Below are positions 27,423 through 61,494 of a stretch of 64,000 nucleotides of DNA, piece by piece. The translations under genes and the position numbers were made by a program. The stretch lies in assembly GCA_964016885.1 (NCBI GenBank), contig CAXHJY010000554.1, positions 1 through 64,000 of the forward strand. Direction: 5' to 3'. Within the stretch, counting starts at the first letter, position 1. The number at the start of each line of letters is the position of its first letter. Origin of the DNA: Eledone cirrhosa (taxonomy: Eukaryota). The notes beneath the pieces were generated by a model. The model was not told the origin of the DNA. It was given only the letters and a program-made list of their open reading frames with translations, and made no database searches.

Positions 27423-27827
27423 ATGGAGCACAAACCATACAATGGGGTATGGATCCCTGTAACAGATGGTCACGATAAAGTAATGTATGAAGGATATATT
27501 TTCAATTATGAAAAAATGAGTAAAACTGATGAAGACACTCGCTTTTACTCGTGTTACAGAAAGAAATCGTTGCGTTGTAAAGCAAGATTGCACATTTGTA
27601 ACAACACAATAACAAAATTACATAAGAACCACAACCACACTGAGGATTCTTCGAACATTGATAAAAGTAATAAGTTCAGACTGGAAAGCGAGATGATACG
27701 AGCAACGGAATCACATTCGACAAGATTGTTACTTATCGCTAACAGCCTCAATTCAACAATATCTGTCCCAGAAAAACTGGCAATCACAAATTCTCCTGGA
27801 TGTATAAGACAAAGAAATATGAGCAAA
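27423..27827 (+). CDS. Coding exon 1: FLYWCH zinc-finger DNA-binding domain, phase-0 donor
   Basis: VMYEGYIF...RFYSC-x7-CKARL...HKNHNH fits the FLYWCH pattern (the W is replaced by Y); 135 codons end at AAA|GTAAGT (GT at 27828). Confidence 0.82.
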
Positions 27828-32062: not shown

Positions 32063-32787
32063 ATATATATATATATACAGAGAGAGAGAGATGTGAGTAT
32101 ATGTGTGTGTATTCAAAGCAAAAGCGTTTTTGTGGAGATGTGGAATGTTCTAGTTAACTGACTACTCAGTGATTTGACTTGACCACCTCCCTACTCACCA
32201 CCACCAGCACAGAGTTGGCTATCCACAGGTGTGAGCCTCGCGAGCTTGAATGGCTCTTCCAGCACGTCTCCCTCACCATCATCTGGGGGAACATCTCTAT
32301 TTTGTCCGCCGGGGTTGTAGGGAGGCCAGTGCGTGGACCCCCATTTGCTTGTAATAGTGAGAGATGGAGAGAGTGGGAGAGACGGAGGCAGTGACAGTGG
32401 GAGTTTGGTTCCATTGTGTTCAGACCTGGTGTATATGAATATATTTATTTACCACACCACATTAACAATAATTTCTCTGAAGACATAATCCAACGTTCTG
32501 ACTAGCTTAATGACGTCACTTGTTATATTTCTTGTAGTCAAGGTCCTGTTTGATGTAAACAGGATTTCATTGGATAGCTTATGATTGACGTCAATTGTTT
32601 TTATGAATCCTTGCTTTGAATGATAAACAGCCTTATTCATGTGCAAATAGAACGTTCAGGGTTTCGAATTCTGGGTTAAACCCATTACACACACACACAC
32701 ACATACATATATGTATGTGTGTGTATATATATATAGGTAAATTTACACAACTCCCTAATCGATTTCAGTGGGAAAAGAATTTCGTGA

Positions 32788-33171
32788 GCTATCAACTAAT
32801 CTAGCCACCAAGATTCTGTCAATCGACTTTTTCCCCGGAAAACGGAAACCCTGACCCTAATCAGGGGAAAAAAGTCTGTTGCGAGCATCTAAGAGGTTCA
32901 TAAAAAATTGAGGAAAGATAATTATTTCCCACCAAACGCGAGAGGCGTGTCGAGCTGCGAAACTCAGATGGTCCTTTCGCTCCCTTTCACCTCGCTTTTC
33001 CTACAAATCTAGTCGTTTCTGACTGGTTCGGAGATCCTATTCGTTGCCCCCCCCCCCCCCCCATCGTAATGAAAACCCTAAAGTGGGGGTCCGATGGGGG
33101 GGGGGCACCCCCTCCGTTCTCCAGGGAAAAAATCGATTGCTAGAATATTGGATGTTAGATTAGATGATAGC
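32788..33171. mobile_element. MITE-like element with ~60-bp imperfect terminal inverted repeats
   Basis: GCTATCAACTAATCTAGC..AATCGACTTTTTCCCCGGAAAACGGA versus TCCGTTCTCCAGGGAAAAAATCGATT..GTTAGATTAGATGATAGC. Confidence 0.65.
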
Positions 33172-33964
33172 ACAATATATGTGTGTGTGTGTTGAACTTC
33201 TTTCTTTTCTCTCTTTCACCCAAAGCGTGAACCTTATAACATTAATTGTATTTGTATCTGTGTTTGTCATTTCTTATTACACACACCCTTCTCTATATAA
33301 GTATATTCAAGTTATTTCCATTTTATTTTATCACTGTATATAAAAATATAATATAATATATTCAAAATACCTTTTATCGTAATATTGTTTTCAAGAATAT
33401 CAGTAAACGCATTTGGTTATATCTATTATAACTAGCTGATCCCGTGGCAATTCAAAGATTTAATTGAGTATTAAAGATCAATATGGCATTTTAAGTGTTT
33501 TCTTTACAAGTTACACACACACACACAAACAAACAAACTATTGTATACAGTGCTTCATTGCATGTAGGCATGGTCGCTAAATCCTTGTAGGAGTCGTAGG
33601 GGTGTCGTATATGTTTGTAGGGTATTTTCTTTCAAAACCTGGTGGAGCCCATCTCTCCATGTCTGTAGATCGCTGGACGAAATACCTTACGATTTTCATT
33701 TAGTTACAGCCTTTCGCGTTTGAAATCCCGCCAGATGTACTTTCTCTTTCGTACTTGCCGAGTTTATAAAATAAACACCAGTTTTACTATTGTAAAATTA
33801 TTATTATTATGAAATCATTATTTTTTATTGTTACCTTTCTCTTTACTATTGTCAAACCTGTTTACACGCACCCTACACGCCGACACACACATTCTGTTTT
33901 CATGTACCGTCCCAATGTTTTCTTAATGTAAACCCTTTGTGGTGAATAAGGAAATCATTATTAT

Positions 33965-34230
33965 TGGCAGAATCGATAGAGCGTCGGACACCATGCTCTG
34001 CGGCATAGAGTTTCGACTTTTTAACGTTCTGAGTTCAAATCCTGCGTAGGGAGCTTTGCTTTTCATCCTTATGGGGTCGATAAAATAAATTACCACATCC
34101 TGCGTAGGTGAGCTTTGCTTTTCATCCTTATGGGGTCGATAAAATAAATTACCAGCAACGCAGTGTCGATTTAATCGACTTTCCTGTCCCCATCTCCCAA
34201 ATGGTTGGCCTTGTGCCTAAATCGAAAATC
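33965..34230 (+). mobile_element. tRNA-derived SINE, second family (internal ~58-bp duplication here); further copies near 29680(-), 37710, 38300, 39920, 42290, 43960, 48670(-), 49990, 50220, 53450(-), 55000(-), 57405
   Basis: Shared core GAGTTCAAATCC..TTTGCYTTTCATCCTTAYGGGGTCGATAAAATAAAGTACCAG..GGCCTTGTGCCTAAA and (ATT)n tail. Confidence 0.8.
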
Positions 34231-35385
34231 ATTATCATCAGGTAAACATATTTTTGTTATATGGTTTCATGACGTCAGTTCAAGTTATGTGAAAGTCACG
34301 AGAAGGCAAAATACGCCATAATGATTTTATAACAAGCAATTAAAACCAAATTGTTGATTCTGAAAGTTGTACGGCGTAAGTTAAGGGAGATAAATAAATT
34401 GTTGCTAAGGAATTATTAGCACCTGGTAACAATCATCAGGTGGCAGCATGTGTTACCAAAACAAAAACGAAAAAATCTCAGACTGTTAGTTAAAGGGTGA
34501 ATGTAATTAAGGGCACTGTAATAATGTAATAAATGAAGGTAATTTGTTTATCAATAAAAACAAAGTAGATTATTTATATTTTTACATAGTATACTATAAA
34601 GTAGTTTCTGTTACATTTAATTTCATCTCATGGCTAAATTTCCGTAAGATTTTGATACGTGGAAGACTGCCATATTTTGACAAGCGTTGACACGCGATTG
34701 TGGGTTTGTTAGAGGAAAAAAATAAGTGGCCAGAGGAAATAGAGAAAGGACAAGTGGTGTTGTGTGTTACAGATCGGATTATTATTGTGCGCCGTTATGT
34801 GAGAGGTTTGGGGTTGATTTCAAGCAAAAGGGATTTCCTGCGATGTTTTTTCTTTTCTCTTTTTTTATTTGCAATTACTTCCTCACAAACAAGCTATACG
34901 TTTCACGCACACATCTCACGTTTTTGTGTATAATACTCCATTTACACTTGCGTGTGCGCGCGCCCACACACATACATACAAACACACACACATACACACA
35001 TATATACGCATTTCTTGGCCCCGCTTTCCTTCATATATAACCATATAACACCTGTACATTCTCTCTGTCACCAATACAATTCTCACCAGACGCCTACTCA
35101 CAAGACTTAACCATTGTATCTTACTCCCGCTCTCATTTACTCACATACGTCAATGTTAAATCTGGGCGGTATCGTTAGGAAATATAGAAAAGAAATTGTT
35201 TTATGAGAATTAAATTATATTTTATATTTTATGAAGAATAAATAGCTAATAAGGCGAACACTGAATAATTAATGAGACGGACTGGAGTTTTGCCCTCTTT
35301 TCTGTTTGTGTAGGTGGCTTCCACAGTATTTCTGAAGAGAAGTAGTTTTGGATCTATCGTAGAGATAAACAGATCGATCGAAACA

Positions 35386-35796
35386 ATGCCCCAACATTGC
35401 GTAGTTCGATTTTGTGATACCGTTCAGTCTTCGAGTTCAGAACCAGCCACTAGTTTACACCGCTTTCCAAAGGATCCCGTTCTAAGGTCCAAATGGATCA
35501 ATTTCGTGCAGACAGGGCGTAAAAACTGGACACCCAATGGCTCATCTGCCATATGTTCGCTTCATTTCACCAGCGAAGACTCACTAGGAGTTTTAATGAA
35601 GAAATTCGGATGCCGTACACGCATATTCTTGAAACAAGGAGCGATACCAACAATACAGTGCCCTAAAATGGCATTGTGTGCAGAGAAACCCACAGAGCAA
35701 AGACAGGATTTAGTCAGTGATAAAGCGATAAATGAAAATATAGCCCTGTCCGGCGGAAATCCATCAGTTCCAAAATTATCTAAAGGAAACTCTCTG
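35386..35796 (+). CDS. Coding exon: complete THAP zinc finger plus linker, phase-0 donor; an in-frame acceptor also lies at 35313/35314
   Basis: MPQHCVVRFC...LHRFPKDP..RSKW...ICSLHF...LKQGAIPTI is the canonical C2CH THAP with conserved P, W, F and an AVPTIF-like box; ends CTG|GTAAGT; upstream CCCTCTTTTCTGTTTGTGTAG|GTG. Confidence 0.9.
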
Positions 35797-41788: not shown

Positions 41789-41828
41789 CTGAAAACTCAG
41801 AATCAACTAAATGAAGAATTTGATATTG
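41789..41828 (+). CDS. 40-nt internal microexon, phase 0 in and phase 1 out (LKTQNQLNEEFDI-G)
   Basis: Acceptor TTTTTTTTTCCTTGTAG| and donor TTG|GTAAGT; open in frame 0. Confidence 0.7.
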
Positions 41829-44913: not shown

Positions 44914-45384
44914 CTGTATATCAAAGTGACCACCAGTAGATGTTAAAATGTACCAAGTATATAATTACCGTTTATAGCAAGGTCAAATTATAAACTACCC
45001 CCCAATTTTAAAAATTATTTTAAATAATCACCTGCACTGTTCCACTCTTATTCCACTCCCAGTTGAGTGGTTGCCAATAGGAAGGACATCCAAATGAATA
45101 TAAAACTGTAAAAGAAAGTAAAATAAAAGTGATATCTTTCGTTTGGCACCTCCCACTCCCTTAAGATTGACAAAAATGTCACCTACTGGAATAAACTATA
45201 AATGTATGCAAGGTTTTAATATACTACTTAAGTTGTTTTCGGCAGAGATTTTTGTTGGGTCCAATTTAATTCTGATAGAAACTGATTTTGTTAGAATTAA
45301 ATTAAGCAACGTGACAACGAAACATTAATGAGAAGATACGAGAGTTATCGAGTTTTTAAACCATTCAAACAGCTTTTATCAACA

Positions 45385-45426
45385 GACCAATGAGAAACGG
45401 GTAGACGGTAGAAGGCGGTGGTCTAC
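45385..45426 (+). promoter_or_regulatory. Putative promoter block: CCAAT plus GTAGAC..GTCTAC inverted pair, shared with 55157-55188
   Basis: GACCAATGAGAAACGGGTAGACGG..GGTGGTCTACA versus GACCAATCAGAAGCAGGTAGACGGTGGTCTACA. Confidence 0.55.
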
Positions 45427-45567
45427 ATGGGATTGTGTCTTTATTATATATTTTTTGCTAGCATTTTGATAGCCTCTGCTACGTGACAAAATTCCGTGCT
45501 AGAACTCCAACTGGCCTTCTTTTTCTATTCTGAGGCTCGCTAGTTCCTTTCTTTATTGTTCGCCACA

Positions 45568-45808
45568 ATGCCGGCTAACTGTATAGTGAAAGGCTGTCGC
45601 TCCATTCAGAAGAAAGGCGGGCCGATTAGCTTCTACCGACTACCATGGAAAAATGTCCGTTTAAGAAACGAGTGGATACGACGAGCTGGTTATGATCCGA
45701 ATAACTACGAGGAAGTGAAGCATATAAGTCGTGACCATCGAGTATGCAGCAGGCATTTCTGGAACAACCGCAAGGAAAGTCCTTATGATCTCCCGACGTT
45801 TTATCTGG
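45568..45808 (+). CDS. Coding exon 1: compact THAP domain (paralogue a), phase-1 donor
   Basis: MPANCIVKGC...ISFYRLPW...RNEWIRR...RVCSRHF...DLPTFY; homology with 55313 stops just after CTGG|GTAAA. Confidence 0.85.
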
Positions 45809-47144
45809 GTAAAAAAACAAATCTATTAAAATTTAGTTTTCTTTCTTTTGCTTTTAAATATATATATCAAAAATATATATATAATTTTCACTCTGAACTC
45901 CTTGATTCTCTTCCCTTTTCTTTTACCTCTTTTGTGATATATAATGGAAATAGTTGAGTGGCTTAATACATACACACATACTACTAAAACGAATATTGTG
46001 TATTTGTCGGTGGCCTGAAATTTCTACCTCAATTTCATTGGTTGATGAAGCTAAGTTGTCGTGACGTCATGTGACGTGGGGAGGGGGGGGGGCACTTCCC
46101 AGTGTTATGATCAAAGTAAATAATTGAAAAAGTTGCATTACATCATACATCAGTAATAGTGCATGGCACACACATTATTTGTTTACAAACTTATATATAC
46201 ATATATATATATAAAGCACAAGTAAACACTTAATACTCATACGATAACACATTTGTGTGTGTGTGTGTATATATATAAGTATCAGTATACAGTTTTAATC
46301 CTCATACGATAACACATTTGTGTATGTATATATATAGATATCGCTATAGGTAATGAGTCCTAGATTTATAACAATTTAGAGGAAGGATTTCAATAAATTT
46401 ATAATTTAAGATACGATACATACGGCATAGTAGGTTAAATTAAATTCCCATGCTACGTATTGTATGCAGATTAAAAATGTTTAATTAAACATGAAGTTTT
46501 AGTCTGAAAAGTTATATTATCAACAATTCGTCTCAAACACATAGCTAGTGAAATGTTATATATGAGTATTGTTGTTTATATAATAATATATTATCGCATG
46601 TACTCTGTATTATAACATTTGATCGAGCAATGCTTTGCATGATGTCCAGAGAAAAATATTGTCTAAGACTTAGTTTAAGACTACATTCTTTAAAGTTTAC
46701 CCAATGTTTCTCTATCTCAGAGATCTTTAGTTCCAACATCTCTCGTTTATTTTCCCATGTCTATCCATCCATCTCTCTATCATGTTATGAGTGTGTGACT
46801 CTCTAAAAATGTAAATTATTCCATCCTTGATGAAAATGTTTAAATGAAATACATTTGTACTTACATTATGGGGGAGGAGGGAGTCACCAGGTGTCCGCAG
46901 GTTAGGAAATGAAGAATTAATAGCATTTAAAAGTTATTTTATTTAATTAATTTTTTTATAGAATGTTTAAGAAATTTATCTTGGGTTGTAACCATAGTAA
47001 GATCAACTAATCTTTAAAAAATTTTCTTCCAACAATATTGAAGTGGAAACGAGTTATCTTCGATTTATTCAGCATCATAGGTGGCGCTGAAAACGGTTTA
47101 GATAACTCTGTAATCAACAAAGGCAGACTCCGGTGTTTATTATC

Positions 47145-47388
47145 ATGGGTCGTGCGCGAAAATCGTTCAGTGCTAAACAGAAGTTAAAAGTGATAGCTTT
47201 TGCCGAGATTTATGGAAACCGAGCTGCTGGTCGTCAATTCAGTGTCGATGAGAAATCGGTCAGAGAATGGCGGAAGCAGAAAGATCGGCTGGAGAACATG
47301 CCGAAAATAAATGTAGCTGATAGTAACAAGCGACCAAAAGAATGGCTGTGGGCTATGCAGAAATGCGGTTTATACATACCGAAATACG
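47145..47388 (+). CDS. Coding exon 1: Brinker/pogo-type (POGK-like) helix-turn-helix DNA-binding domain, probable phase-1 donor
   Basis: RKSFSAKQKLKVIAFAEIYGNRAAGRQFSVDEKSVREWRKQKDRL fits BrkDBD; the donor TACG|GTACTT is only moderate, so the 3' end is uncertain. Confidence 0.78.
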
Positions 47389-50300
47389 GTACTTATCAAT
47401 TCTGCTTTTCATTTCACAGCTTCTGTATACACATACATGCATGAATGCATGTAATGCATGTATATCTATTTGTTTATATATTGACTTATTACTGAAGGAT
47501 TTTTTTCTTTAATTCACTGTGCAAGAATCTATAAGCATTATCTACAGTAAAATTTTACCGGACCATACCTTGCAAATGTGTATTAATAAGTTGGGAAGTT
47601 CAGGAATGTATTATCTAAAAGTTGATCTGCTGTTTATTATATTTCACTGCTGTCGAATTTCGTTTTACTCTATGAATTCATGTACATCTTATCAGTGAAT
47701 GTGTATGCATATATATTTATATATATATACACATACACATGATGTTCCGTGGTGTTTTCAGCTTTATTATGTAAATGAGATTGCACAAATATCGAGAATT
47801 TGATGACATCTGGATAACTTCTGAGAAATGATATCGTCTGAGAAGTTAAAAGCGTATTTTGGGGGTTATTGTCCACAGAGAACTTCTGTATCAACAAACT
47901 TACGTTTCTTCGTATCTTTGGGGAGAGGATTTTCGATCAGGTTTTAAGTTGGCATTTACAGTTGCTTTTAGGAAACAAATGTAAACTTCAGATAAATAAT
48001 TTTTACTATGCTGTGTTTTTTCTAAGTGATTTTGTCAATGAACAGAAACAAATGTAGTTCTAATCATTAATTATTAGGAAATATTGATTCTTGTTTTACT
48101 TTAAATACCATATCTTTATGTCTAACCTTTTATATTTTTCGATTGATTATGTCTCCTTAGAATGGACTTTCTTTTTATTGAATCGGTCTCGAAACAAACT
48201 TTCAACATGTTTATGTTGGTTGGATTTCTTTTTTTATTTTTTTTTTAAGAATCAACCATTGAATGTGTGCACTTTGTTGAAGCTTTGTATCTGTGAGAAA
48301 TGCATATGAATATACACAAAATAATGTTTACGTTGATGTAAGAAAATAATCATTTTTAATATGGCATTTTAGTTCAGTGGTTCGTAAATTAGCATTTTTC
48401 GCTTAAACTGCTAAAACTTAAATGCATACTTACCTCCCCTGTTCCATTATATCGTGAACGTTCTGAACAGTTTTGTATGCAAACTGCATTGGTGTAAACA
48501 TGGGAAAATGACTGATTCATACTAAAGTATGGGTGTAGGGGGAATCTGACGTCAGGATATTGATGACTTTCCCAAAGGAATTATTAGCGTCTGAAGATGC
48601 CACTAATTCCTTTAGAATCAGAACTGGATTGTGAACTTGAGTTTACTGTCTAGACTTCTAACAATGATTTCTGATTTAGGCACATGGCTTACAAGTTTGA
48701 GCAAAGGAAATGTCCATTAAATAGACCCCGGTACTTTATTTTATCAACCGCATAAGGATGAATGGCAAAGCTAACCTTGTTGAGATTTGAACTCTAGACA
48801 TCTAATAATGCATATGAATGGTGTGTGTTGAGCAAAAACTTCTGAAGGTTAGTTGTATAGAATAGTGTGGTCAAAAGAGCTGGGAAACATTTCGCAAGAG
48901 TTAATTACGTCAAAACGTTAGTTGTAACTTACAGATATTTGTTGGTAAAAGGTTGATAGAAAATACACCATTGAATTAAAAGTGATGATTGTTTTAGTGC
49001 TTTTCTGATTTTGATTATATTTGGGATAAAAAAAATGATGCTCTCAAATGCATGGAACATAATAAGTTAGGTGAGAAATCTGAAACTAAATATTATCCTG
49101 TTGGCAAACCACTTTCAATTGGGATATGAAAACAGGTATTTGACACATTTTACTGAGAAATAATAACCACATCACAAATGCAACAATGTATCTATTTAAA
49201 ATTATATCAACTGCATCCTATATTTAAATACAGTTTACTGAATGTAAGCTGTATCACTGGCTTGTGTCACAATGGGACAACTCGTCTAAGCCATGCTAGC
49301 ATAGGAAAATGGACATTAAATGGTGATATGTTGTCATTGGATAATTTGGTCCTATATACACTGTCTGGTTAAACGATGAAATTGTTGTGGCTGGAATGCA
49401 TTTGATCATAGGTTCGATCAATCAGGTGATCAAGCGTCACAGCATACTGGTGATAAATTTATTTCTAGTTTCCTTTTTTTTTTTTTTTTTTTTATAGCAA
49501 TGTATTAGGAGGAAAATGCATGTTGTTGTTCATAAGTAGTCCCAACTAGCTTTACACCATATGGGGAATCAATGGAAGAATTAAGAGCAACCCAGATATC
49601 TATCATATGTGAAGGTGCTATATTTCAGTTTGCTCTGAGATTATTTACATAGACTTTGTGGAAATCAGCTTTTAATATTTTTGTGTCAATATATGTATGC
49701 ATGTTTGGTCACCTAACTCCTGAGGAAGTTGGAGGGGCGCCGTATTGACATACGGCGTCTTAAGGGCATGTTTTTAAACCTGGCAGAGCCCATCTCTTCT
49801 CCTGGCCTGAATATCACAGATTTCTTCCAGAGTCAGATAAAGAATGAGAGAATGGGAGTGAGAAAGATATATAGAGGAAGAATCAACACCCAGTCTCTGG
49901 CTGGTACTTTATTTTTTTATCAACCTTCATTGGATGAAAGGCAAAGATTATGTCAATATATAGTGTATTATTATTCTTAGGGTGAATCATGGCAAAATCG
50001 GTAGAACACTAGCCAAAATGTTTGCAGTATTTAGTTATGACCCTTTATGTTATGAGTTCAAATCCTGCTTGGGTTGGCTTTGTTTTTCGTCCCTAAGAGA
50101 GGAGGTGTCAATTTAAAATAAGCACATGTATTGAAGTTTCATTGAATTTTCTTTAAACATCTCCTAAATTTGTGTCGTTGTGCTTATATTAGAAATCATT
50201 ACTATTTCTGTTAATGGGCAGTGGATTAGCAGAAGCATCAGACAAATGTTCAAAACCGCTGAGGTTAACTTTACTTTTCATCCTTCTGGGGTTGATAAAA

Positions 50301-50756
50301 TAAAGTATCAGTCAAGCACTGGAATTGATATTATCAACTTTCCTTTCCTAAACATTTGTTAGCTTTGTGCCTAAATTAGAACTCATTGTTTCTGCTGTTT
50401 TTAATTTAAGTCAGTTAGAGTGTCCAGGTTTAAAAAAAAAAAAAAGAATTGAATTTTATTTTACATGAGTAATTTCTGTAAGTGTGATCTGCAATTTCTT
50501 TACATTTATTTTACTTGTGTATAATTTTTAAGGCTTAGCAAAAGATCCAGTGACAGCCATAGTTACTTTTGTGTTAGTGTTCCACACTCTCATCATGGTC
50601 TCCAATTTGAGATATTTGTTAATGTTCTTGGCTTCCTTTGTTAGAAGATTAGTATGGTCTGTGAACATGACATCAATAAGAAAGCAGGTCTTTGCATTTT
50701 CATTTTAGAATATTGTTTTGCTATGGTGCTGTCTGTATTGACAGCTATCTCACATG

Positions 50757-52700
50757 ATTCATCATCATCTTTTTTATGTACGTCTTTTCAATGTTGCATG
50801 ATTTGGATGGGTCCTTTTCAGCACAGCATCTCTCCACTCTCCACATTCCTTCGTTATCTCCTCTGTGAGACTTAGCAATTTGAGATCAGCTCTCACTGCC
50901 CAGGGCTTCCTTGGTCTACTTTTACTGTGGCTTCCTTCTACAGGGATTTCCTGGCACTTCTTCACCCAGCAATAATCATCCATGCATATCACATACCCAT
51001 ACCAACACACTCATCTCTTTTGCACACCACTTCAGATTCCTTTTAAACCCAAGCATGGAGGCTTCATTTCTTTCCAATTTTCACAGGTCCTCTTCGCACA
51101 GTGTCCAGGCCTCACTGCTGTGCAACATTGTTGTTTGTATACATGCATCATACAATCTTTCATTTTGAGGGAAAAATCTTTTGTAGTTAGCAGCAGTGGT
51201 AACTTCCTGAAATTTCTCCAACCCGTTTTCACTCTGGCTACTGTGCTTTCAGAACACCCTCCTCCATTTCTAATTTGGTCACCCAGGTAACAGAAACTAT
51301 CTACTACTTCTACACAGCCCTCTGGGCATTTGAAGGAGTTTGTAACCTGAAAGCTCTTGCTACTTACTTCCCCTGTGCACTGGCCACATGTAAAACCTAC
51401 ATTTTTTGCTAGCTTGCCTGAGATCCCACTACATTTCTTGTGTACTCATAATTTGCATTTGAGACATAGGATGGAATTTTTACCTAATCCTTTTCTGCAT
51501 ACTGAACACGGCCATTTCCCCGATGAGATCTGGGCCATTTTCTTTTCTACTTACTAGGACTAGAGTCTTTGCCAAGTTGACTTTGAGACCTTTTGATTCT
51601 AGGCCATGCTTCCAAGTTTGGAATTTCTTCTCTAATTCAGCTATAAGGGTTAGGTCATCTACATATAGGAGTTCCCATAGGCAGCTAGTCTTAAACTCCT
51701 CCGTTATTGTATGCAGGACGATAATAAACAGGAGAAGGCTAAGAACTAAGCTATGATGGGCACCAACTTGCACACTGAATTCTTAGTCATTATTAATTCT
51801 GACCTTGCATACTGTTCCTCTATACATGGCTTGTACTGCCTTCACAAGCCACTCATCTATTCCTAGTTTTCTAAGAGCCCACCAGATAATGGAATAGGGG
51901 ACTCTGTCAAAAGCTTTCTCCAGGTTCACAAAAGCCAAGTAGAGGGGTTTACCTTTAGGTAGGTACTTCTGCAATTACCTTACAAGAAAGAGGGCATCTG
52001 TGGTACTTTTACCTGGTACAAATTCAAACGGCATCTCATTTAGGTTAACTTGTTCCCTAATCAGCTGTGCAATGACGCTTTCTGCAACCTACATAACTTG
52101 GTCAACCAACTTAATGCCTCTATAGTTTTCTCTATCTAGAGCATCACCTTTGCCTGTGTAGCAGTTGATGATGCTGCTGCTACGCCGGTCATTGGGTATG
52201 ACACTATTTTGTATTACTTAGTTTACAATGCAGGAGACTATGGTGTGGCCCACCATTCCTAATGCTTTCAGTGTCTCAGCAACTATCTCCAAAAGTCCAG
52301 CTGCCCTGCCTATCTTCATATACTTGATTGCTGTACTTACTATACTACTGCTGACCTGTACAGCCAATCCCCCTGTTGGGTCAACTTGGGGAACACTATC
52401 TTCTTCCCATGCATTCTCCTTATTCAGTGGTGCTTCCATCATACCTTCTTTTCAGCGTCAGTCAAGACAAGTTTGCCATAATCATTTCGGACACATTTCT
52501 TCCCATCGACATCACAATTTTCCATGATACACTGGATGGTGATCCTGAACACCTCACGCTTCAAAACCTGCTTAAATTTTTTGTTTTCCGCTTCCCTTGT
52601 GGCAAGGTATAATCGTCGCCTAGCATTCTAGTAGAGATCTCTACTTCCCCCATTTTGCCAATCCTTCCAAGCATGTCTTTTGGCTTTAATTGTCTCACCT
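50757..52700 (-). mobile_element. Old decayed RTE copy (RT to tail)
   Basis: KGKPLYLAFVNLEKAFDRVP, WELLYVDD, KKCQEIPVEG..RPRKPW; many stops; (CAT)n at about 50760. Confidence 0.85.
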
Positions 52701-53667
52701 TCACCTTTATATTTAGGTATATTGGAATTTCGTTTGATATATTATACAATATTTGGGAATATTGGTATATATATATATGATATATACACAATGTACACTA
52801 TAGTTAGGTATATTGCTATTTTATTTGATCGATACACAATGTACACTATTCTTTCTCAGTTTTGATTCCTCCTCTGGGGAGCCATCATAGATAGGATATG
52901 ATTTGATGGAATTTGGCTGCTATATAGAGGGGTTTGCATGGGCTTGATGTATCTGGTGTTTAAGAACATGGAGACTCTTTGTTTTGAAGTCATTTAATGT
53001 CCTACATTCATCTAGTGGAGAATCATGATGAAAGCATGGCTGTCTTGGCATATTGCTATCCAGATTTTTCTAGTGATTACGAGGTAAACTTAGTTGGAGC
53101 GTGATAATTGCGGTCCCTCTGCAATTGCTATTGATGCTGTGACACTCACTACACTCTTTTAGGCCTATGAACTTATTGGTGCTTCTAAATTTGTTCCCAA
53201 ATGATGGATCTAATATATTGTTTCTAGATTTGTGTTGACCAATCATTTTATAGGCTAGTCAGGACAATGTCCATAACTTTTGCAGTATGTCATAAGACTA
53301 ATGAAATCGATATAATTGATGTTACGGTTGGGAAAAGCCTGTGTGTGACCTAAGTATGTTTGCACATAATTTTGTTTTGGCTGTCTTCTGCGTCCAGGTT
53401 CGTATCATTGTGGTAGCGATGTTTGAGTATTTTTTCTCACAATGATAATGGTTTCTGATTTAGGCACAAGGCCAACAATTTTGTGGAGGAGGGAAAAATC
53501 GATACCAGTACGTTACTGGTACTTTATTTCTCACTATACTAATAATAGAAACAGCAATTGTTATACTGCCTTCTTGTCTTTATATTGTTGAGCGTGGTGA
53601 TCGCTATTATCTGATGTTGCTGATAAGAAAGATATTGGAATGGATAGGTGCTACTATTAGTCTAATG

Positions 53668-53999
53668 CAGCATTTCTCAACTTTTTTACCCGTGTGGAAC
53701 CCTTAAAATAGTTTTCATGTCTCAGGGAACTCCCGCATAAAAATTACTATATACCATTATTAATATCTATCTATTTTATATTTTTATCGTAGTTCACGTG
53801 CTAAACATAATATATTTATAATATAAGAGGTTGAAGCTTTATTATATATAATAACCAAGGGTTTTCCAACAATATGCCATACTTGTATAGTAAAATTACG
53901 AGTATACAATTAAACAAAATTACTCAAAAATGCATTAGCTTATTTATCAGTATCTCGCGGAACCATAGGATTCCGGTGAACACCGGTTGTGAAACACTG
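53668..53999. mobile_element. hAT-like MITE
   Basis: CAGCATTTCTCAAC ... GTTGTGAAACACTG with degenerate 8-bp flanks GTCTAATG/GTCTAGTT. Confidence 0.55.
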
Positions 54000-55312
54000 G
54001 TCTAGTTAAGAGAGTTGTTTGTAGCAGCTCTCTCTGGAAATAATGAGATGTGAATATCATGTGTAATAAAAGTTAAAAAGTGTAAGAGGGTGTGTCCTTG
54101 TGCAACACTGTTAGGTAAATTGCAAATTCTAGACGAAACATTATTGTATTCTACATCATAAGATTCCGATCCTATACCTACGTTGTTGCAAAATGAATTT
54201 TAAAGGGAAAAAATCCTTTGAATTAATCTTAAGATCTAACAAAGATTTTTATTTTATTTTATAGATAACCGAACAATCGATATTTTATTGTTAGTGTATT
54301 ATTTTATCAACTCTAATTTATGGAGCCGGCTGGATTATCCAGAAATGATGGAAAGAGACCAGACGGTCTTACCTTTTATCTTTGTGAAAAAGATAGGCGT
54401 CTCATCTGAGACTTAACAGTCAGTGACTCTTTTGCACCCTCCCATGTCATGGACGCCGCGGTAAATGTGAGGGCTTCCGTTACCGAACGGAATAAAATTC
54501 GGAAATATCTGGATTTATCTAATAACTATTTTTCGAGACGTTTGGTGGAGTTGGGTCGCTAACAGCGAAGTTCTTATCGCTGGCGGCTTGCCTTACTGGG
54601 GTGTTAGAGTGCCTGGTTGTTTCAGCGCCTTAGCCTAGCTATTACCAGTAGTGATGTTGTGAGTGTGTTAGCTTGCCTCAAGATGTTCCGTTGATCCTTA
54701 TGATGTGCGGCCGATTGTCGCACTTGGTGGCGAATTGTTGGTCGTTTTTGCTCCCTCCCCGCTTTCTTTCGCCCTGGTCGTGTTTTGGTGCGTTGTTTTT
54801 GTGAGGTTCCTGGCGATGGCTGGTTGTATTTGTTATATGCGTTTATATGTGTATCAACATTATATTTGTAATGTTATGTGTACAACTGTGAATAACGTTT
54901 TATATTTCCAATTGTGAAAGAAACGAAGAAAAACAAAACAAAAAATATGCAAACATTGATGAATTGTAAATATACTTCTATAATAAATTGTTTTTACTTT
55001 TGGCACAAGGCCAGCAATTATATCAGTGTATTACTGGTGCCTAATTTTATCGACCCCTTAAGGATGAAAGGCAAAGTTAACCTCGGCGAGATTTGAACTC
55101 GGACCATAAAGGGCCATAACTATGCTGCAAAAGCCGTTTAAATAGTTCTGTCAACCGACCAATCAGAAGCAGGTAGACGGTGGTCTACACGATAATATAT
55201 CTTTAGGGTATTTTCTTTTTTGCTGGTACTGGGACCATCTTAAATTTGATAAATTCCCATGCAGGTCCACCGTTCTGCATTACTTTTCATTTGATTCTGA
55301 AGCTTGCTATAA

Positions 55313-55553
55313 ATGCCAACCAAGTGCATTGTGAAAGGCTGTCGTTCCCTTCAGAAGAAAGGTGGGCCGATTAGCTTCTACCGACTACCATGGAAAAATA
55401 TACATTTAAGAAATGAGTGGATACGACGAGCTGGATATGACCCAAATAATTATGAAGAAGTGAAGCATATAAGTCGTGACCATCGGGTGTGCAGCAGGCA
55501 TTTCTGGAACAACCGCAAGGAAAGTCCTTATGATCTCCCAACGATTTACCTGG
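55313..55553 (+). CDS. Coding exon 1: compact THAP domain (paralogue b), phase-1 donor
   Basis: 74/80 aa identical to the 45568 exon by manual alignment; same length (241 nt); ends CTGG|GTAAAG. Confidence 0.85.
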
Positions 55554-57770
55554 GTAAAGAAACTATCTATGAAACCTGCTTCATTTTTAAAAATTAATTT
55601 ATGAGTATAATTTGTAGTCCATCTCGTTTCCTCCTTTTTGCTCTTTAAACAGCTATCCAATGCGTGCTTTTTCTTTCTCTCATTCAGCACACATACTAAT
55701 GTGATACCGTCGCCGTCTTAACGTTACTTAATATTTCGAACCTTCTACCTCATTTTCATTGGTCGGATTAAAACTTGAGCTAGCATGACGTCACCGGTAT
55801 CTAATGCATTTACTTTAGAATACAAACTAACCGGTTTAGGTGTCCCAACCTTCTAAACATGGTTAAATCTCCTTTAAATGGTTCTCTACAGTCTTGAATT
55901 AAGAAAGGGCATACTGGATAATGTACTCTTAGATTCACTATGCCTGAAAACAAAGCACTTTTAATTGTAATGATTTTGTTGGGCAGCCGCATGTTGATGA
56001 AAACGTAAACAAGTAGACGAAGAAAAGTAAATAAATACTTGGGACTTTACTTTTATCTCTGATGGTATATTTATAACTGTTATTCTTTCATGAGGTTTTC
56101 CCTCAAGTTTAAAGGGTAGCAGAGAAATTCGTTATATCTTTCCCCTAGAAATGGAAAAGTGAAATGCCTAAAAGCGAATTGGAATGAAACAAAGAAAGGT
56201 GTGACCAGCCAATTTTATTTTACTCTATGCATATTTCAGGGTAATTTATGCATAGAAAATAATTAACGGCAACTAATGGACTGGAATAAGTAGTTAAGCC
56301 CCTGGTCGGGGACTGATTGATCCACGAGGCTAAAGTGGACACGGTTGTATAGCTGTGCGATTGCGTGGTTTCCGTTTCAGTTTCACTGACCTTGGCCAAA
56401 GTATCTTGTCATGGCATCGGGACAACCAGAATGTTTGTGAGGAAACTTAGTAGACAGAAACGTCTGAAAGCTCATGGTGTTGTTTAACACCGACACCTGG
56501 TCCATGAAAACAATCACGGAAATCTTGAAAAGAGTTGAAATATATCAACATTTATCTATCCCTATAAAATCCGGGAGATTGTGCTTTATTATAATAGATC
56601 AATTTTCAATTTGTGTATATATATATATATACATACACATGCAAATTCTATAGCGCTTTTCAAGTATTTCTAGATAAGCGACTCGATGAAATAGTTCAGG
56701 TCTAGAGAATTCGATTTATATGAAATATAAATGCATTTCAAAGTGATTTAATGATATTTGTGAAGCTGTTTCAATTGGGAGTCTGTTTTCTGAAAACATA
56801 ACTTTTATCACACACACACACATACTCTCTCTGGATGTCTGTTAATGAGAAGTCTGTGGGGAATATTTTATTTGATGTTTGTTTATTTTATAAAAAAAAA
56901 TACACGTCAAAATATTTTAAATGATATTTATTGTTTATTTCTTTTTTAAACAAGGTGTTAACTAAAGTAGTAATGTTGATTATTTAACATTAGATGCTAG
57001 GTGATATTAAAGTCACGGAAATCTTTTAATCATTCTACACACTATAGTTAATTTTCCTTAATTTTAATTATAAGGATGCTTATGTTAAATTAGTATAAAG
57101 CTGTTAATTCCGTGCAAGAAATTTTGTATGCAAGACCTTTTTTCTTATAAGGTGAAGGATGGATACAGAAAAAAGAATCAATGATCTAAAGGATGACAAG
57201 TACTCTTTAAGTAATTTGAAAGATTTTTAAAAGTAAAATATATTTCTTTGCAAGTGTTTCGAGTAAAGAGAAATAAAAGGAAGAGTCATTGTTGGTATTA
57301 TTTTTTTTTTGGGGGGGGGGGGGGGGGGGTCATTTGCAATTCTTCTATTCAAATAAATATATTGCATTGTCAGTTCAAAATTGATGATATTATGTGTACT
57401 GGATTGGCAGTATCGGTAGAGGGTCGGACGCCATGCTTTCCAGCATAGTTACGTCCTTTACGATCTGAGTTCAAATCCCGCCGAGGTTGACGTTGCCTTT
57501 CATCCTTACGGGGTCGATAAAATAAAGTACCAGTAATGCACTGGATAATTGCTGGCCTTGTGCCTAAAGTAGAAACAATTATGTGTACTAGGAGCCAGTT
57601 CTTTAAGATGTGTATTTTCCCCGTTCTCGTCAAAATAGTCGACTTAGAAAATTTAAATTGCTACTTTATATTAGATATTGTTCATCCAATGAATATACAT
57701 TTTCAGTTAATCTCAAACACCAATTGTAATAGACATAAAGAGATCGATAAATAGTTTTAACAGAACTTCG

Positions 57771-57856
57771 CAGCCATTTTTACAAGTCTTATAATAACCA
57801 TTCTTCTTTTCATTTTTTTCGGTAATTTTAATGTAAGATCAAGTCCGAACTTCCGG
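57771..57856 (+). promoter_or_regulatory. YY1-like (GCCATTTT) and ETS-like (ACTTCCGG) motifs ahead of the second HTH exon
   Basis: Motif matches at 57773 and 57849; function is inferred. Confidence 0.35.
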
Positions 57857-58072
57857 TTAAAACAAGCTTCGTTTTTTCCCCAAGTTAGAAATCATATTCG
57901 GAAAGATGCAGTGAAAGGATGAAGTGGTTTTTCGCTTTACTCAGCTGAAATATTGTCAGCTTTCATTTATAAATAATAGAGAATTTTCAACAAACCGAAT
58001 AACAACAAAATCAGGTTAGGGGAAAATACTTTCACTTCTACTTCGGCAAACGAAGAAAGAAATCTGAATAAA

Positions 58073-58304
58073 ATGGGTTTTAAACGAATGAAATATACTT
58101 CAAAATTTAAACTACAAGTCGTGATGCTGGCTTTGAAAACCAATAATTCGGAAGCTGGGAGACAATTTAGTGTTAATGAAAAACTTGTTCGGGACTGGAG
58201 GAAAAAGGAAGCTGAACTTCGGAATATGCCACCCACAAAATGTTCTAATCGCGGTAAGAAAAATACTGACAAAATCAATATACCATGTGTTAATTTTTTT
58301 ACAG
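58073..58304 (+). CDS. Coding exon 1: Brinker/pogo-type HTH DNA-binding domain, phase-1 donor (alternative phase-1 donor after 58253)
   Basis: RMKYTSKFKLQVVMLALKTNNSEAGRQFSVNEKLVRDWRKKEAEL fits BrkDBD; donors GCG|GTAAGA (58254) and CAG|GTGAGT (58305). Confidence 0.83.
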
Positions 58305-59893: not shown

Positions 59894-59964
59894 ATGGTGA
59901 ACTTCTGTGCCGTGTTTGGCTGTAACAGTAAACACAAGACTGGGAGCGGCATTTCCTTCCACAG
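59894..59964 (+). CDS. Coding exon 1: N-terminal half of a THAP domain, phase-2 donor (absent from the ORF track)
   Basis: MVNFCAVFGCNSKHKTGSGISFH(R) ending CAG|GTAAGA; M-x3-C-x4-C...SFHR start typical of THAP; GCCATATTG motif at 59860. Confidence 0.82.
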
Positions 59965-61494
59965 GTAAGATTATTTTATCTTTTGTTGTTGCTACTTTAA
60001 ATTTGTTTTTTCATTTTTACTATTTCCATTAATGTTTGTTTAAATATATATTTATTTCTGTATGACAATTCCAGCGAAGTCTCTAAGCCAGTACATAAGG
60101 ATTAGCTAGTTTAAGTTAGTGTAGGAGCGGCGACTAATACCTTTCCAATACTATCACTGTTATTTTTCTTCCTCTCACTTTCATGTCTCTCTTATCTCGC
60201 TCTCTCACTCGATGTATTTGCATCTCTGTTTGCGCCAATCTTCTCCCCCCCCCCCCCTTCTCTCACTCTCTCACACTATCGCACTCGTTCCACGTTTTTA
60301 GAGGTTTTCACATGGGTTTTATCGATTCACTCACCGGGGTTTGCTTTTTTTTTTTTACATTATTTTCGCTATAATATAGCACTCCTGTTGATCTATTCAA
60401 TATAAATTGTCTTGTTGCAATATATCGCATTTGTAAGTCCATTTCGTCTATTAGTATTCCTTTGTCTTCGATCAAGATGAGAAGTGACTGTTTAGGAAAA
60501 AACTAGAGAAATGAAGAGGAGAGAGAGCCATAGGGGGATAATTGATGATTGCAATTTTAGCGACAGAACTACTTGTCTTTAACTTTTAATTGTATTCTTA
60601 GATTGGCCGGCACATGTTCTGTGTTTACAACGTGTGATAGAGGGTGTGTGTACTACAGTAAATAGTCCAGTCGAAAGAGCCCTTCAATTTTTCGTTTTCC
60701 TGTATATGATTATTTCTTGTTGAATTTCTGATTTCTAAACATGATCAAATGATAAAGATATGTCTTTTCTTCACCTACCCCCACCTCATGTATTGTGACT
60801 AATGTGCACTATATTGTATGTGTATCTCTTTAAGGACGACTTTCTTGTTTTTGTCAGACATAAATCGTAAGTGCTAGTAATGTTTTGAGTTCATTGATTA
60901 AAATGTCTTCTTATTTGAGGATATTTCTTGCCAGCAATGGATACACGGATGGTTTTCTGAACGTGTTACCAGCGAATACTTATCCTGGTACTTGGTTCTC
61001 AATAACTCAGTCCACTGAATTGTGGTTTAACTACACATAAGTCAGCCTAAGTGAACAGTTCTGTAATCTCTTGAGCATTGCGTAACTATGACTTCCTCGT
61101 TTTTTGAAAGTTGTAGGGTGTAATTGGAAGATTTGGCTGCTATTTCTGGCAGGTCAAGAAGCCATGTACAGGCTCCTCATACTTCTTAGCTTTCAGTAGA
61201 TACCAGCAGTAGTATTGTTCACAATTATAGACAATGATACTCTCTCTAGAATTAATGAATGATTCATTGGATTGTCATGTAATCTACATAATTCTTTCTC
61301 GGAGGGAAAAACTACCAGTATCATCATGGTTATGACTTAATTCTGCAGAAACTGGAGATAAGCCCATGGATATTTATTATTTAGAAAAGGATATGTAATG
61401 CTAGAGCATAAGTGAGCTGAAAGAAAAGTTAAGTATAAGAGGAATTGAATGTAGTATGTAAAAGAAACTATTGTGTTAGTATAGGGTCATGTTA

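Follow-up and report, generated by a model that had tools for sequence, protein, structure and literature searches.

We report here that a 64,000-nt stretch of Eledone cirrhosa DNA (assembly GCA_964016885.1, contig CAXHJY010000554.1, positions 1 to 64,000, forward strand; hereafter the window) contains a row of exons that very probably serve one octopod BTB gene as alternative 5′ cassettes, different DNA-binding heads being placed on one shared and probably dimerising tail. The row comprises seven cassettes (one FLYWCH, four THAP and two Brinker-type, BrkDBD) and one shared exon of 40 nt. The cassettes are named FLYWCH, THAP0, THAP1, Brk1, THAP2, Brk2 and THAP3, the shared exons of the gene E1 to E4, and the gene itself appears in octopod annotation as LOC106877732 or LOC115209932. 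Domains were called with Pfam, at curated cut-offs in frames of the window, and also in database isoforms. An earlier note on this DNA had placed THAP exons at 45568 and 55313 and helix-turn-helix (HTH) exons of the BrkDBD type at 47145 and 58073; all four are real and score above the Pfam cut-offs, but the note had missed the longer row (27423, 35386, 41789, 59894) and its membership of a BTB gene. The three further ATG-started exons, on the same strand, are FLYWCH at 27423, THAP at 35386 and a split THAP at 59894. GT donors are in phase 0 in FLYWCH and THAP0, in phase 1 in THAP1 and THAP2 and in phase 2 inside THAP3, while Brk1 and Brk2 have phase-1 candidate donors. The first 24 codons of THAP3 taken alone score under the Pfam cut-off, and no second exon of this cassette could be located within the window.

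Cassettes and the BTB tail

The connection between cassettes and tail comes from predicted gene models (mostly RefSeq XP_ entries) and from rows in the supplement of PMC10027918. Among 48 candidate longer relatives of the FLYWCH exon one was found, the 731-aa isoform X9 of LOC106877732 from O. bimaculoides, in which the FLYWCH exon (residues 1-135) is followed by E1 (136-149) and by a remainder, with a BTB domain at 357-460, that has no match in the window. A search with this remainder gave 38 proteins among the 7999 scored. Ten of them are isoforms of one gene (six from O. bimaculoides, three from O. sinensis and one from Argonauta hians) that have the last 534-596 residues in common, BTB included, and differ in their N-termini. 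Their heads are THAP, FLYWCH, CENP-B/Tc5 (two), a winged HTH of Tc1 appearance, DUF3504-like (three) and one without a Pfam match at E 0.05; two heads are orthologs of THAP0 (74% identical) and THAP3 (22 of 24 residues). In isoform P0002 the head lies at residues 14-72 and the BTB at 357-460, and the remaining isoforms whose head has a Pfam match show the same order. For THAP1, longer relatives amounted to one match among three candidates, a genomic read-through ortholog. Supplementary file 3 of PMC10027918 lists the THAP1 and THAP2 orthologs XP_014782209 and XP_014782210 under LOC106877732, and that supplement adds 12 further N-termini on the same tail, these two included. This brings the total to 22 distinct N-termini on one BTB tail, 12 of them THAP and two with a Psq exon in common, and the head types (THAP, FLYWCH, CENP-B/Tc5, Psq, Tc1-like HTH and DUF3504) represent at least six unrelated families. 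In the gene models of three octopod species, five of the seven window cassettes, THAP1 and THAP2 among them, continue into common downstream exons that end in a BTB domain, and they do so at the donors and phases read here (as judged by eye for THAP1 and THAP2).

In the same supplement rows, FLYWCH (484151), THAP0 (475451), THAP1 (449858) and THAP2 (441166) follow one another on one strand of scaffold KQ422521, colinear with the window, and all cassettes with coordinates on this scaffold, spanning 500350-320408, lie on that strand. Over the 12 rows that have coordinates, the point of entry into the tail shifts with position, from E1 for the most distant cassettes through E2 for THAP1 and THAP2 and E3 for the next ones to E4 for the last; THAP3, which those rows give without coordinates, likewise enters at E2.

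We propose that each cassette encodes one DNA-binding domain of transposase type, as the Pfam matches indicate, and possesses its own promoter, the use of which would choose the head. The cassette donor would be spliced to the next shared exon downstream, as in the gene models, and because the joins follow the ladder E1-E2-E3-E4 upstream cassettes would carry more linker, the product in all cases consisting of head, linker and BTB. Since the BTB probably dimerises, as family knowledge and one structure prediction suggest, co-expressed isoforms would pair different heads, and the dimers could, like ZBTB and mod(mdg4) proteins, function in sequence-specific repression or in chromatin architecture. 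Both DNA binding by the heads and a repressor or architectural role of the isoforms appear likely.

Dimerisation is known for BTB domains as a family. The homodimer prediction for the octopod BTB scored 0.83, a value that may owe something to the memory of the predictor since BTB dimers are solved structures, and the best of three controls scored 0.00; the predicted local distance difference test (pLDDT) was 85, and the runs agreed in at least 85% of contacts. The dimer mark is reached by 21 of 30 solved pairs and by none of 23 single chains (eukaryotes 17/29, animals 7/16). The nearest solved BTB is that of the Kelch-family NS1A-binding protein (E 1.4e-9), followed by ZBTB18, SLX4 and BCL6, and the BTB of fly CG6765 came last of 28 solved BTB matches. 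A Kelch-family protein as nearest relative would suit a tail that serves as a Cullin-3 adaptor and brings ubiquitination to the chromatin sites chosen by the heads, in place of ZBTB-like repression; however, strong Cullin-3 binding needs a BACK/3-box, and a Pfam BACK or Kelch domain is absent from P0002 and all 31 other family members scanned, so that we regard this function as unlikely.

The remaining 28 of the 38 proteins are paralogs with a BTB, and in several of them the head is fixed (THAP, FLYWCH, ZSWIM3_N or DUF3504). A BTB tree of 30 rows, with 6 of its 27 branches starred, does not settle the orthology of the cuttlefish protein P0026, and the ESM Atlas returned generic BTB clusters only. 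A cluster of paralogous BTB genes stands beside the locus (LOC106877737-745 and relatives, P0012-P0033 and P0036), one of them at KQ422521 299579. Some of the clustered paralogs have a fixed THAP, FLYWCH or ZSWIM3_N head, and the THAP of P0014 resembles, by eye, the most upstream cassette, as though a single isoform had become fixed as a gene of its own.

Table 1. Coordinates of the cassettes and associated features in the window
Feature	Position	Strand	Evidence
FLYWCH cassette, zinc finger, 135 codons	27423..27827	+	PF04500 E 1.6e-12; phase-0 donor 27828; joins E1; equals residues 1-135 of O. bimaculoides LOC106877732 isoform X9, then E1
THAP0 cassette, ATG 35386, 137 codons	35314..35796	+	Pfam THAP E 1.8e-17; phase-0 donor 35797; joins E1; 74% identity to N-terminus of isoform X6, then E1
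THAP0 acceptor	35313/35314		Read in sequence; also used by the 'Thap8' model
Shared exon E1, 40 nt, phase 0 to phase 1	41789..41828	+	AG/GT borders; sole shared exon within the window; 11/14 residues identical to the segment common to isoforms X5, X6 and X9
THAP1 predicted promoter and 5′ untranslated region (UTR)	45380..45567	+	CCAAT-N8-GGTAGA element at 45387; conserved with THAP2, flanks unalignable
THAP1 cassette, 80 codons + 1 nt	45568..45808	+	Pfam THAP; phase-1 donor 45809; joins E2 outside the window; ortholog XP_014782209 (LOC106877732) differs at 1 residue and runs into E2 at the same position
Inverted CCAAT-N8-GGTAGA copy (46041) and TGACGTCA (46062), intron after THAP1	46020..46069	-	
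Brk1 predicted cassette, Brinker-type HTH, 81 codons + 1 nt	47145..47388	+	BrkDBD E 2e-7; predicted phase-1 donor 47389
Broken copy of long interspersed nuclear element (LINE) type between THAP1 and THAP2, outside the gene's parts	50759..52707	-	73-75% identity to reverse-transcriptase-bearing window copies
THAP2 predicted promoter and 5′ UTR	55150..55312	+	CCAAT-N8-GGTAGA element at 55159
THAP2 cassette, 80 codons + 1 nt	55313..55553	+	Pfam THAP; phase-1 donor 55554; joins E2; ortholog XP_014782210 (LOC106877732) differs at 1 residue and runs into E2 at the same position
Inverted CCAAT-N8-GGTAGA copy (55762) and TGACGTCA (55786), intron after THAP2	55740..55793	-	27-nt arm, 81% complementary to 55155-55181
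Brk2 predicted cassette, Brinker-type HTH	58073..58304	+	BrkDBD E 1.9e-11; phase-1 donors 58254 (60 codons) and 58305 (77 codons)
THAP3 first exon, THAP split by phase-2 intron	59894..59964	+	Donor 59965; joins E2; 'Thap9' model; 22/24 residues identical to N-terminus of Argonauta hians isoform X6 (THAP+BTB protein)

In a search for hidden cassettes, Pfam found no DNA-binding domain in 134 extra frames from CpG-rich zones, namely 95 of the 105 on the plus strand (most of the others having been scanned earlier) and 39 of the 124 on the minus strand. Since THAP0 possesses an acceptor, a 5′ leader exon probably precedes it; the stretch 34520-34564, which to the eye looks like the exon that comes first in the 'Thap8' model but has no ATG, might be such a non-coding leader. 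Compared with O. bimaculoides, 13 linker residues after the THAP domain of THAP0 (35386-35796) are missing in frame. In the THAP3 intron, nine bases (60858-60866) between a pyrimidine-rich AG and GTAAGT could represent a micro-exon, perhaps by chance, and are absent from both THAP3 models examined. Upstream of FLYWCH, O. bimaculoides has a CENP-B/Tc5 cassette at a distance of about 0.8 kb. This cassette has no match in the window, where LINE-type copies and microsatellites occupy that side (1-26500), and it may have been displaced or lost.

The THAP pair and the Brinker-type exons

The codon comparison of THAP1 and THAP2 (80 codons) gave 16 synonymous-only and six non-synonymous codons, 24 nt in total and no indels, the same counts as those made by hand in the earlier note. 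By the Nei-Gojobori method, non-synonymous divergence (dN) is 0.032 and synonymous divergence (dS) 0.50, with dN/dS of 0.064 (bootstrap 95% 0.018-0.147; Fisher p=1e-9), far from 1, and the two exons are under purifying selection, as had been supposed. With 43.7 and 43.9 bits, both are well above the Pfam cut-off for THAP (PF05485), which is 23.9. The THAP signature combines C2CH zinc ligands with conserved P, W, F and P, and both copies carry C5, C10, C60, H63, P26, W36, F64 and P76.

Counts made by eye against the printed cDNAs of O. bimaculoides separate THAP1 from its ortholog by eight synonymous codons and one non-synonymous codon, and THAP2 from its own by 13 and one; in the same comparison 13 codons group by ortholog and none by species. 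Because of this grouping, and because all six amino-acid differences between the window copies also separate the O. bimaculoides copies, the duplication predates the split from O. bimaculoides, with both copies conserved since. Gene conversion between THAP1 and THAP2 was rejected on the same by-eye counts and is not needed. Of the reasons formerly advanced for the unequal divergence of the THAP and HTH exons, different ages are retained. A duplication of haplotypes was also rejected, because the flanks are unalignable and each copy has an ortholog. Early against later codon counts, again by eye (6:8-11 against 2:21-24, Fisher p 0.014-0.053), are suggestive only of a possibly faster protein change just after the duplication.

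The order THAP-Brk occurs twice and the THAP exons are clearly paralogous, which led to the former proposal that a THAP+HTH pair was copied in tandem as a whole, its unequal divergence being put down to conversion or different constraint. However, when 33-64 kb was compared with itself by blastn (word 7, E 1e-4), the regions 45-50 kb and 55-59.5 kb matched each other only in the THAP exon (89% over 264 nt) and in short copies of a dispersed repeat. The stretches that lead from THAP unit to Brk exon have no further sequence in common, and the THAP-to-Brk distance is 1577 nt in the first instance and 2760 nt in the second. Similarity had been said to collapse right after the GT donor, but it persists in part amid the unalignable flanks: both copies retain a promoter-like block on the upstream side and another in the intron, some 210-260 nt from its start. 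With these two additional blocks, the duplicated unit is a single THAP unit of about 0.7 kb; growth of the array by local duplication holds for the THAP1/THAP2 unit and not for a THAP+HTH pair.

The HTH exons are indeed much more diverged: Brk1 and Brk2 are identical at 27 of 56 residues, with 54% nucleotide identity and saturated synonymous sites. A profile of the two, run against 1.84 billion representatives, gave 2426 matches, and the results that follow rest on the best 150. P0052 is a Brk1 ortholog with 82% identity over 90 aa, and P0043 carries orthologs of both Brk1 (64% over 80 aa) and Brk2 (72% over 64 aa) in the same order at one locus, its similarity to Brk2 stopping just beyond the first Brk2 donor (58254). 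To their own orthologs Brk1 and Brk2 are identical at 40/54 and 43/54 residues, and to each other at 27/54. In a 24-row tree the Brk1 group and the Brk2 group each form a separate starred clade instead of one, and monophyly of Brk1 and Brk2, a constraint taken from the hypothesis of the earlier note and applied after the first tree was known, was rejected by the approximately unbiased test (p-AU 0.0017; 22 rows, the long P0026 and P0034 rows omitted). Brk1 and Brk2 are old and are not sisters, and they were likely acquired separately. With each Brk exon nearer to its ortholog in another genome than to its neighbor, no THAP codons grouping by species and the repeated order lying inside a row of seven mixed cassettes, duplication of the pair as one unit is highly improbable.

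Several near relatives of Brk1 and Brk2 possess a pogo HTH_Tnp_Tc5 or DDE_1 domain. Two proteins, P0086 and P0113, have an N-terminal BTB followed by BrkDBD and HTH_Tnp_Tc5, a further fusion of BTB and pogo-type head, in the opposite order and with a distant BTB (22-25% identity). The HTH-like N-terminus of P0026 and P0034 was considered as a Brk isoform and not counted, since it has no Pfam match and reaches E 0.082 to Brk2. Between the two Brk orthologs of P0043, residues 226-262 form a FLYWCH-like piece (Pfam E 0.037) without a match at 47400-58000 of the window, which could possibly reflect cassette turnover between lineages.

The THAP cassettes might be spliced to the tail while the HTH exons are pogo-like relics, or stand-alone microgenes off the BTB tail. 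A Brk isoform is absent from every set examined, and the Brk1 donor is weak, with ortholog similarity extending a few codons beyond it. On the other hand, both HTH exons are intact ATG-started frames, conserved at 64-82% (protein level only) and in the same order in other genomes, their phase-1 donors fit the phase required by E2, their sequencing depth is low, Pfam finds no second HTH or DDE core after either domain, and other pogo-type heads (CENP-B/Tc5, Psq) are annotated on the tail. We regard relics or microgenes as doubtful, and splicing of Brk1 and Brk2 to E2 as a prediction with a good chance of being correct.

Predicted promoters, flanking elements and a probable transposon origin

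A promoter of its own for each cassette appears likely because of colinear 5′ UTRs, CpG content and the conserved CCAAT block upstream of THAP1 and THAP2. The 5′ UTRs of the FLYWCH, THAP1 and THAP2 models are colinear with genomic DNA over 60-93 nt (about 93 nt upstream of the ATG in THAP1 and THAP2) with no leader, as judged by eye. The observed/expected ratio of CpG (CpG o/e) at the seven cassette starts is 0.59-1.29 (window median 0.54), and at five of the seven it is at least 0.99 (window 90th percentile 1.00). Head choice in the same gene might instead operate through internal exons that exclude one another and follow a single non-coding leader, or through trans-splicing: an acceptor is present in THAP0, for which an upstream exon has been modelled, any cassette with an internal acceptor has to be skipped, and trans-splicing is known at analogous loci (mod(mdg4), lola and mite sDscam), according to passages of PMC11426971 and PMC9258826. 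Such a mechanism is improbable in view of the leaderless 5′ UTRs and of the arrangement on KQ422521, where every cassette with coordinates in the supplement rows is on one strand and entry follows position, so that cis-splicing suffices.

Each of the two THAP exons is bracketed by an inverted pair of CCAAT-N8-GGTAGA elements, 45387(+)/46041(-) and 55159(+)/55762(-), and these four are the only exact matches in the 64 kb. The pairs have been kept while the THAP flanks are unalignable, and because they survive amid such DNA their persistence points to selected binding sites. Each pair could be a promoter with its mirror (antisense) promoter, or an exapted terminal repeat; homology extends beyond the downstream arm of the bracket, and no target-site duplication was seen by eye. 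Around the Brk exons no such bracketing pair was found among the 25 longest pairs listed per region. The motif TGACGTCA occurs six times in the window against 0.47 expected, also at 32511, 32586 and 34270. These last three fall in the first of two CpG-rich stretches that contain no coding exon (32500-34850 and 53500-55000).

The earlier note held the exons to be functional and not decaying transposon debris. Depth was obtained from three DNA runs of one sample, possibly the assembly's own source, mapped at 80% likeness, and is not to be read as copy number. It was 7-20 in the THAP1 bin, 13-29 in Brk1, 32-43 in the THAP2-end bin and 27-35 in Brk2, with similar values in neighbouring intron bins; the THAP2-start bin shares a repeat and its depth is uninformative. 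The strongest repeat bins reached 1e4-1.6e6, against 7-43 for repeat-free exon bins, and the exons do not look like a dispersed transposon family. If they were members of P-like or pogo-like families, the database isoforms would have to be annotation chimeras. These models are predictions, and a 27-nt imperfect inverted repeat that brackets each THAP could be a terminal-repeat relic. Against this stand the dN/dS of 0.064 and the low depth, one-to-one orthologs in conserved order, variable heads on the same tail in the annotations of three species (the THAP3 join being modelled in two), and the lack of a transposase core and of any target-site duplication visible by eye, which together render the explanation scarcely credible.

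The heads were likely captured from transposons, because of their domain types and because E3 (P0002 residues 166-197) opens with a THAP's C-terminal half, for which a THAP-HARBI1 protein of Lingula is a match. The separate clades of Brk1 and Brk2 and the pogo-type domains of several of their near relatives also speak for capture. Neither the isoforms nor the window frames scanned contain a DDE or P-transposase core; the DUF3504 heads are recombinase-like. Three O. bimaculoides cassettes end before the last zinc ligand, which E3 supplies, so that the THAP domain is split and its first half varies while the second half is common to all three. We envisage that the row grows mainly through capture of transposon 5′ ends in introns and secondarily through duplication of single cassettes, as for THAP1 and THAP2. 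That the locus constitutes a standing trap, in which DNA transposons landing in an intron in the right orientation donate promoter and first exon as a new head, is a speculative extension that is more probably wrong than right; were it true, cephalopods would possess in one gene an equivalent of the KRAB zinc-finger arsenal, with the ends of the captured elements as its targets.

Several observations weigh against the proposal of one gene with alternative 5′ cassettes. All joins are predicted gene models (mostly RefSeq XP_) of other species and not reads, and because E2-E4 and the BTB lie outside the window the linkage in Eledone cirrhosa is deduced by orthology. Internal acceptors (THAP0 35314 and the second exon of THAP3) must be skipped by upstream transcripts, and since some cassettes contain acceptors, 'first exon to next acceptor' is incomplete as a rule. 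Among the best 150 of 2426 matches no BrkDBD representative carried the BTB tail (0/150, two having matched via an unrelated BTB), which makes the joining of Brk1 and Brk2 to E2 a prediction from position, phase and conservation, and the two Brk motifs had no match in the five supplements of PMC10027918. The CpG o/e values of THAP3 and THAP2 are ordinary (0.59 and 0.76), Brk1 and FLYWCH have no CCAAT within 400 nt, and no 7-8-mer with at least three G/C is common to four of the seven upstream regions. Finally, none of the window cassettes could be traced to a donor transposon.

Comparison with known systems

Part of this material is already in the literature. Mukherjee and Moroz 2023 (PMC10027918) described Octopus THAP-BTB and CENPB-BTB factors and called the BTB a transposon component. 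The proteins listed in the supplement are the same octopod proteins, 11 times under LOC106877732; passages of the main text speak of species-specific expansions of separate factors, and the main text has 0 occurrences of 'isoform' or 'alternative'. The isoforms are already known from RefSeq, and what appears new relative to those passages is the one-gene cassette layout. The oyster BTB clusters of PMC12111275 are clusters of whole genes and have no bearing on the octopod locus. A full-text search found no published description of the locus; supplements and most subscription journals lay outside its scope, so one may exist. If the cassette layout is correct, the published count would change, since about half of the 25 Octopus THAP factors in the passages cited (12 distinct heads) would be isoforms and not the result of gene expansion. 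Moreover, a single locus would be available for dating and testing repeated transposase capture, the THAP1/THAP2 duplication and the turnover of cassettes among species. Because gene-level RNA-seq and single-cell counts merge the isoforms into one row, any specificity for a tissue or cell is at present invisible.

UGT1A is a 5′ variable-cassette array with alternative promoters, whose paralogous cassettes encode enzymes, unlike the unrelated DNA-binding domains of the octopod cassettes. Clustered protocadherins and chelicerate sDscam likewise combine tandem 5′ cassettes with shared 3′ exons and promoter choice, as described in passages of PMC9258826, and five of the seven window cassettes have orthologous models joined to shared exons. 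However, those cassettes are paralogous copies of one domain in adhesion proteins, while the octopod ones encode unrelated DNA-binding domains (FLYWCH, THAP and BrkDBD in the window, CENP-B/Tc5, HTH_29 and DUF3504 elsewhere), and at the octopod locus the common exons alternate with groups of cassettes, forming four tiers, with no common promoter motif found. If cassette choice were cell-specific as in protocadherins, more than 20 heads paired via the BTB would yield hundreds of regulator combinations across neurons.

Vertebrate KCTD1 isoform b arose when a Crypton DUF3504 was inserted upstream of a BTB gene and became an alternative N-terminal exon, and KIAA1958 has two alternative DUF3504 exons (passages of PMC3212892). 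The octopod locus resembles both in having a transposon-type domain on an alternative exon, three of its heads being DUF3504-like, and resembles KCTD1b in that a head exon in which no catalytic core was found is joined to a host domain, with purifying selection on THAP1 and THAP2. The differences, on the same passages, are one or two captures and a KCTD-type BTB there, against more than 20 heads from several superfamilies here.

The closest parallel is offered by mod(mdg4) and lola, in which, according to parts of PMC11426971, a constant BTB is shared by 20-30 isoforms whose DNA-binding domain varies (FLYWCH or C2H2), and pairing of isoforms has been proposed to widen specificity. Like these genes, the octopod locus would be a single gene in which numerous alternative exons for DNA-binding domains go with a constant BTB, 22 N-termini in the models. 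Unlike them, it has its variable part at the 5′ side and the BTB after it, whereas in mod(mdg4) and lola, as those parts describe, the BTB stands at the N-terminus, with the variable exons lying 3′ and partly trans-spliced; its heads also come from at least six unrelated domain families. The TTK-type BTB of the fly genes is arthropod-only and not found in Mollusca, again in the passages cited, while the solved BTBs nearest to the octopod one are of Kelch/ZBTB type. The resemblance is likely convergent. If our interpretation is correct, octopods would have independently invented, with a reversed layout, the BTB gene with variable DNA-binding domains that has hitherto been a hallmark of fly mod(mdg4) and lola.

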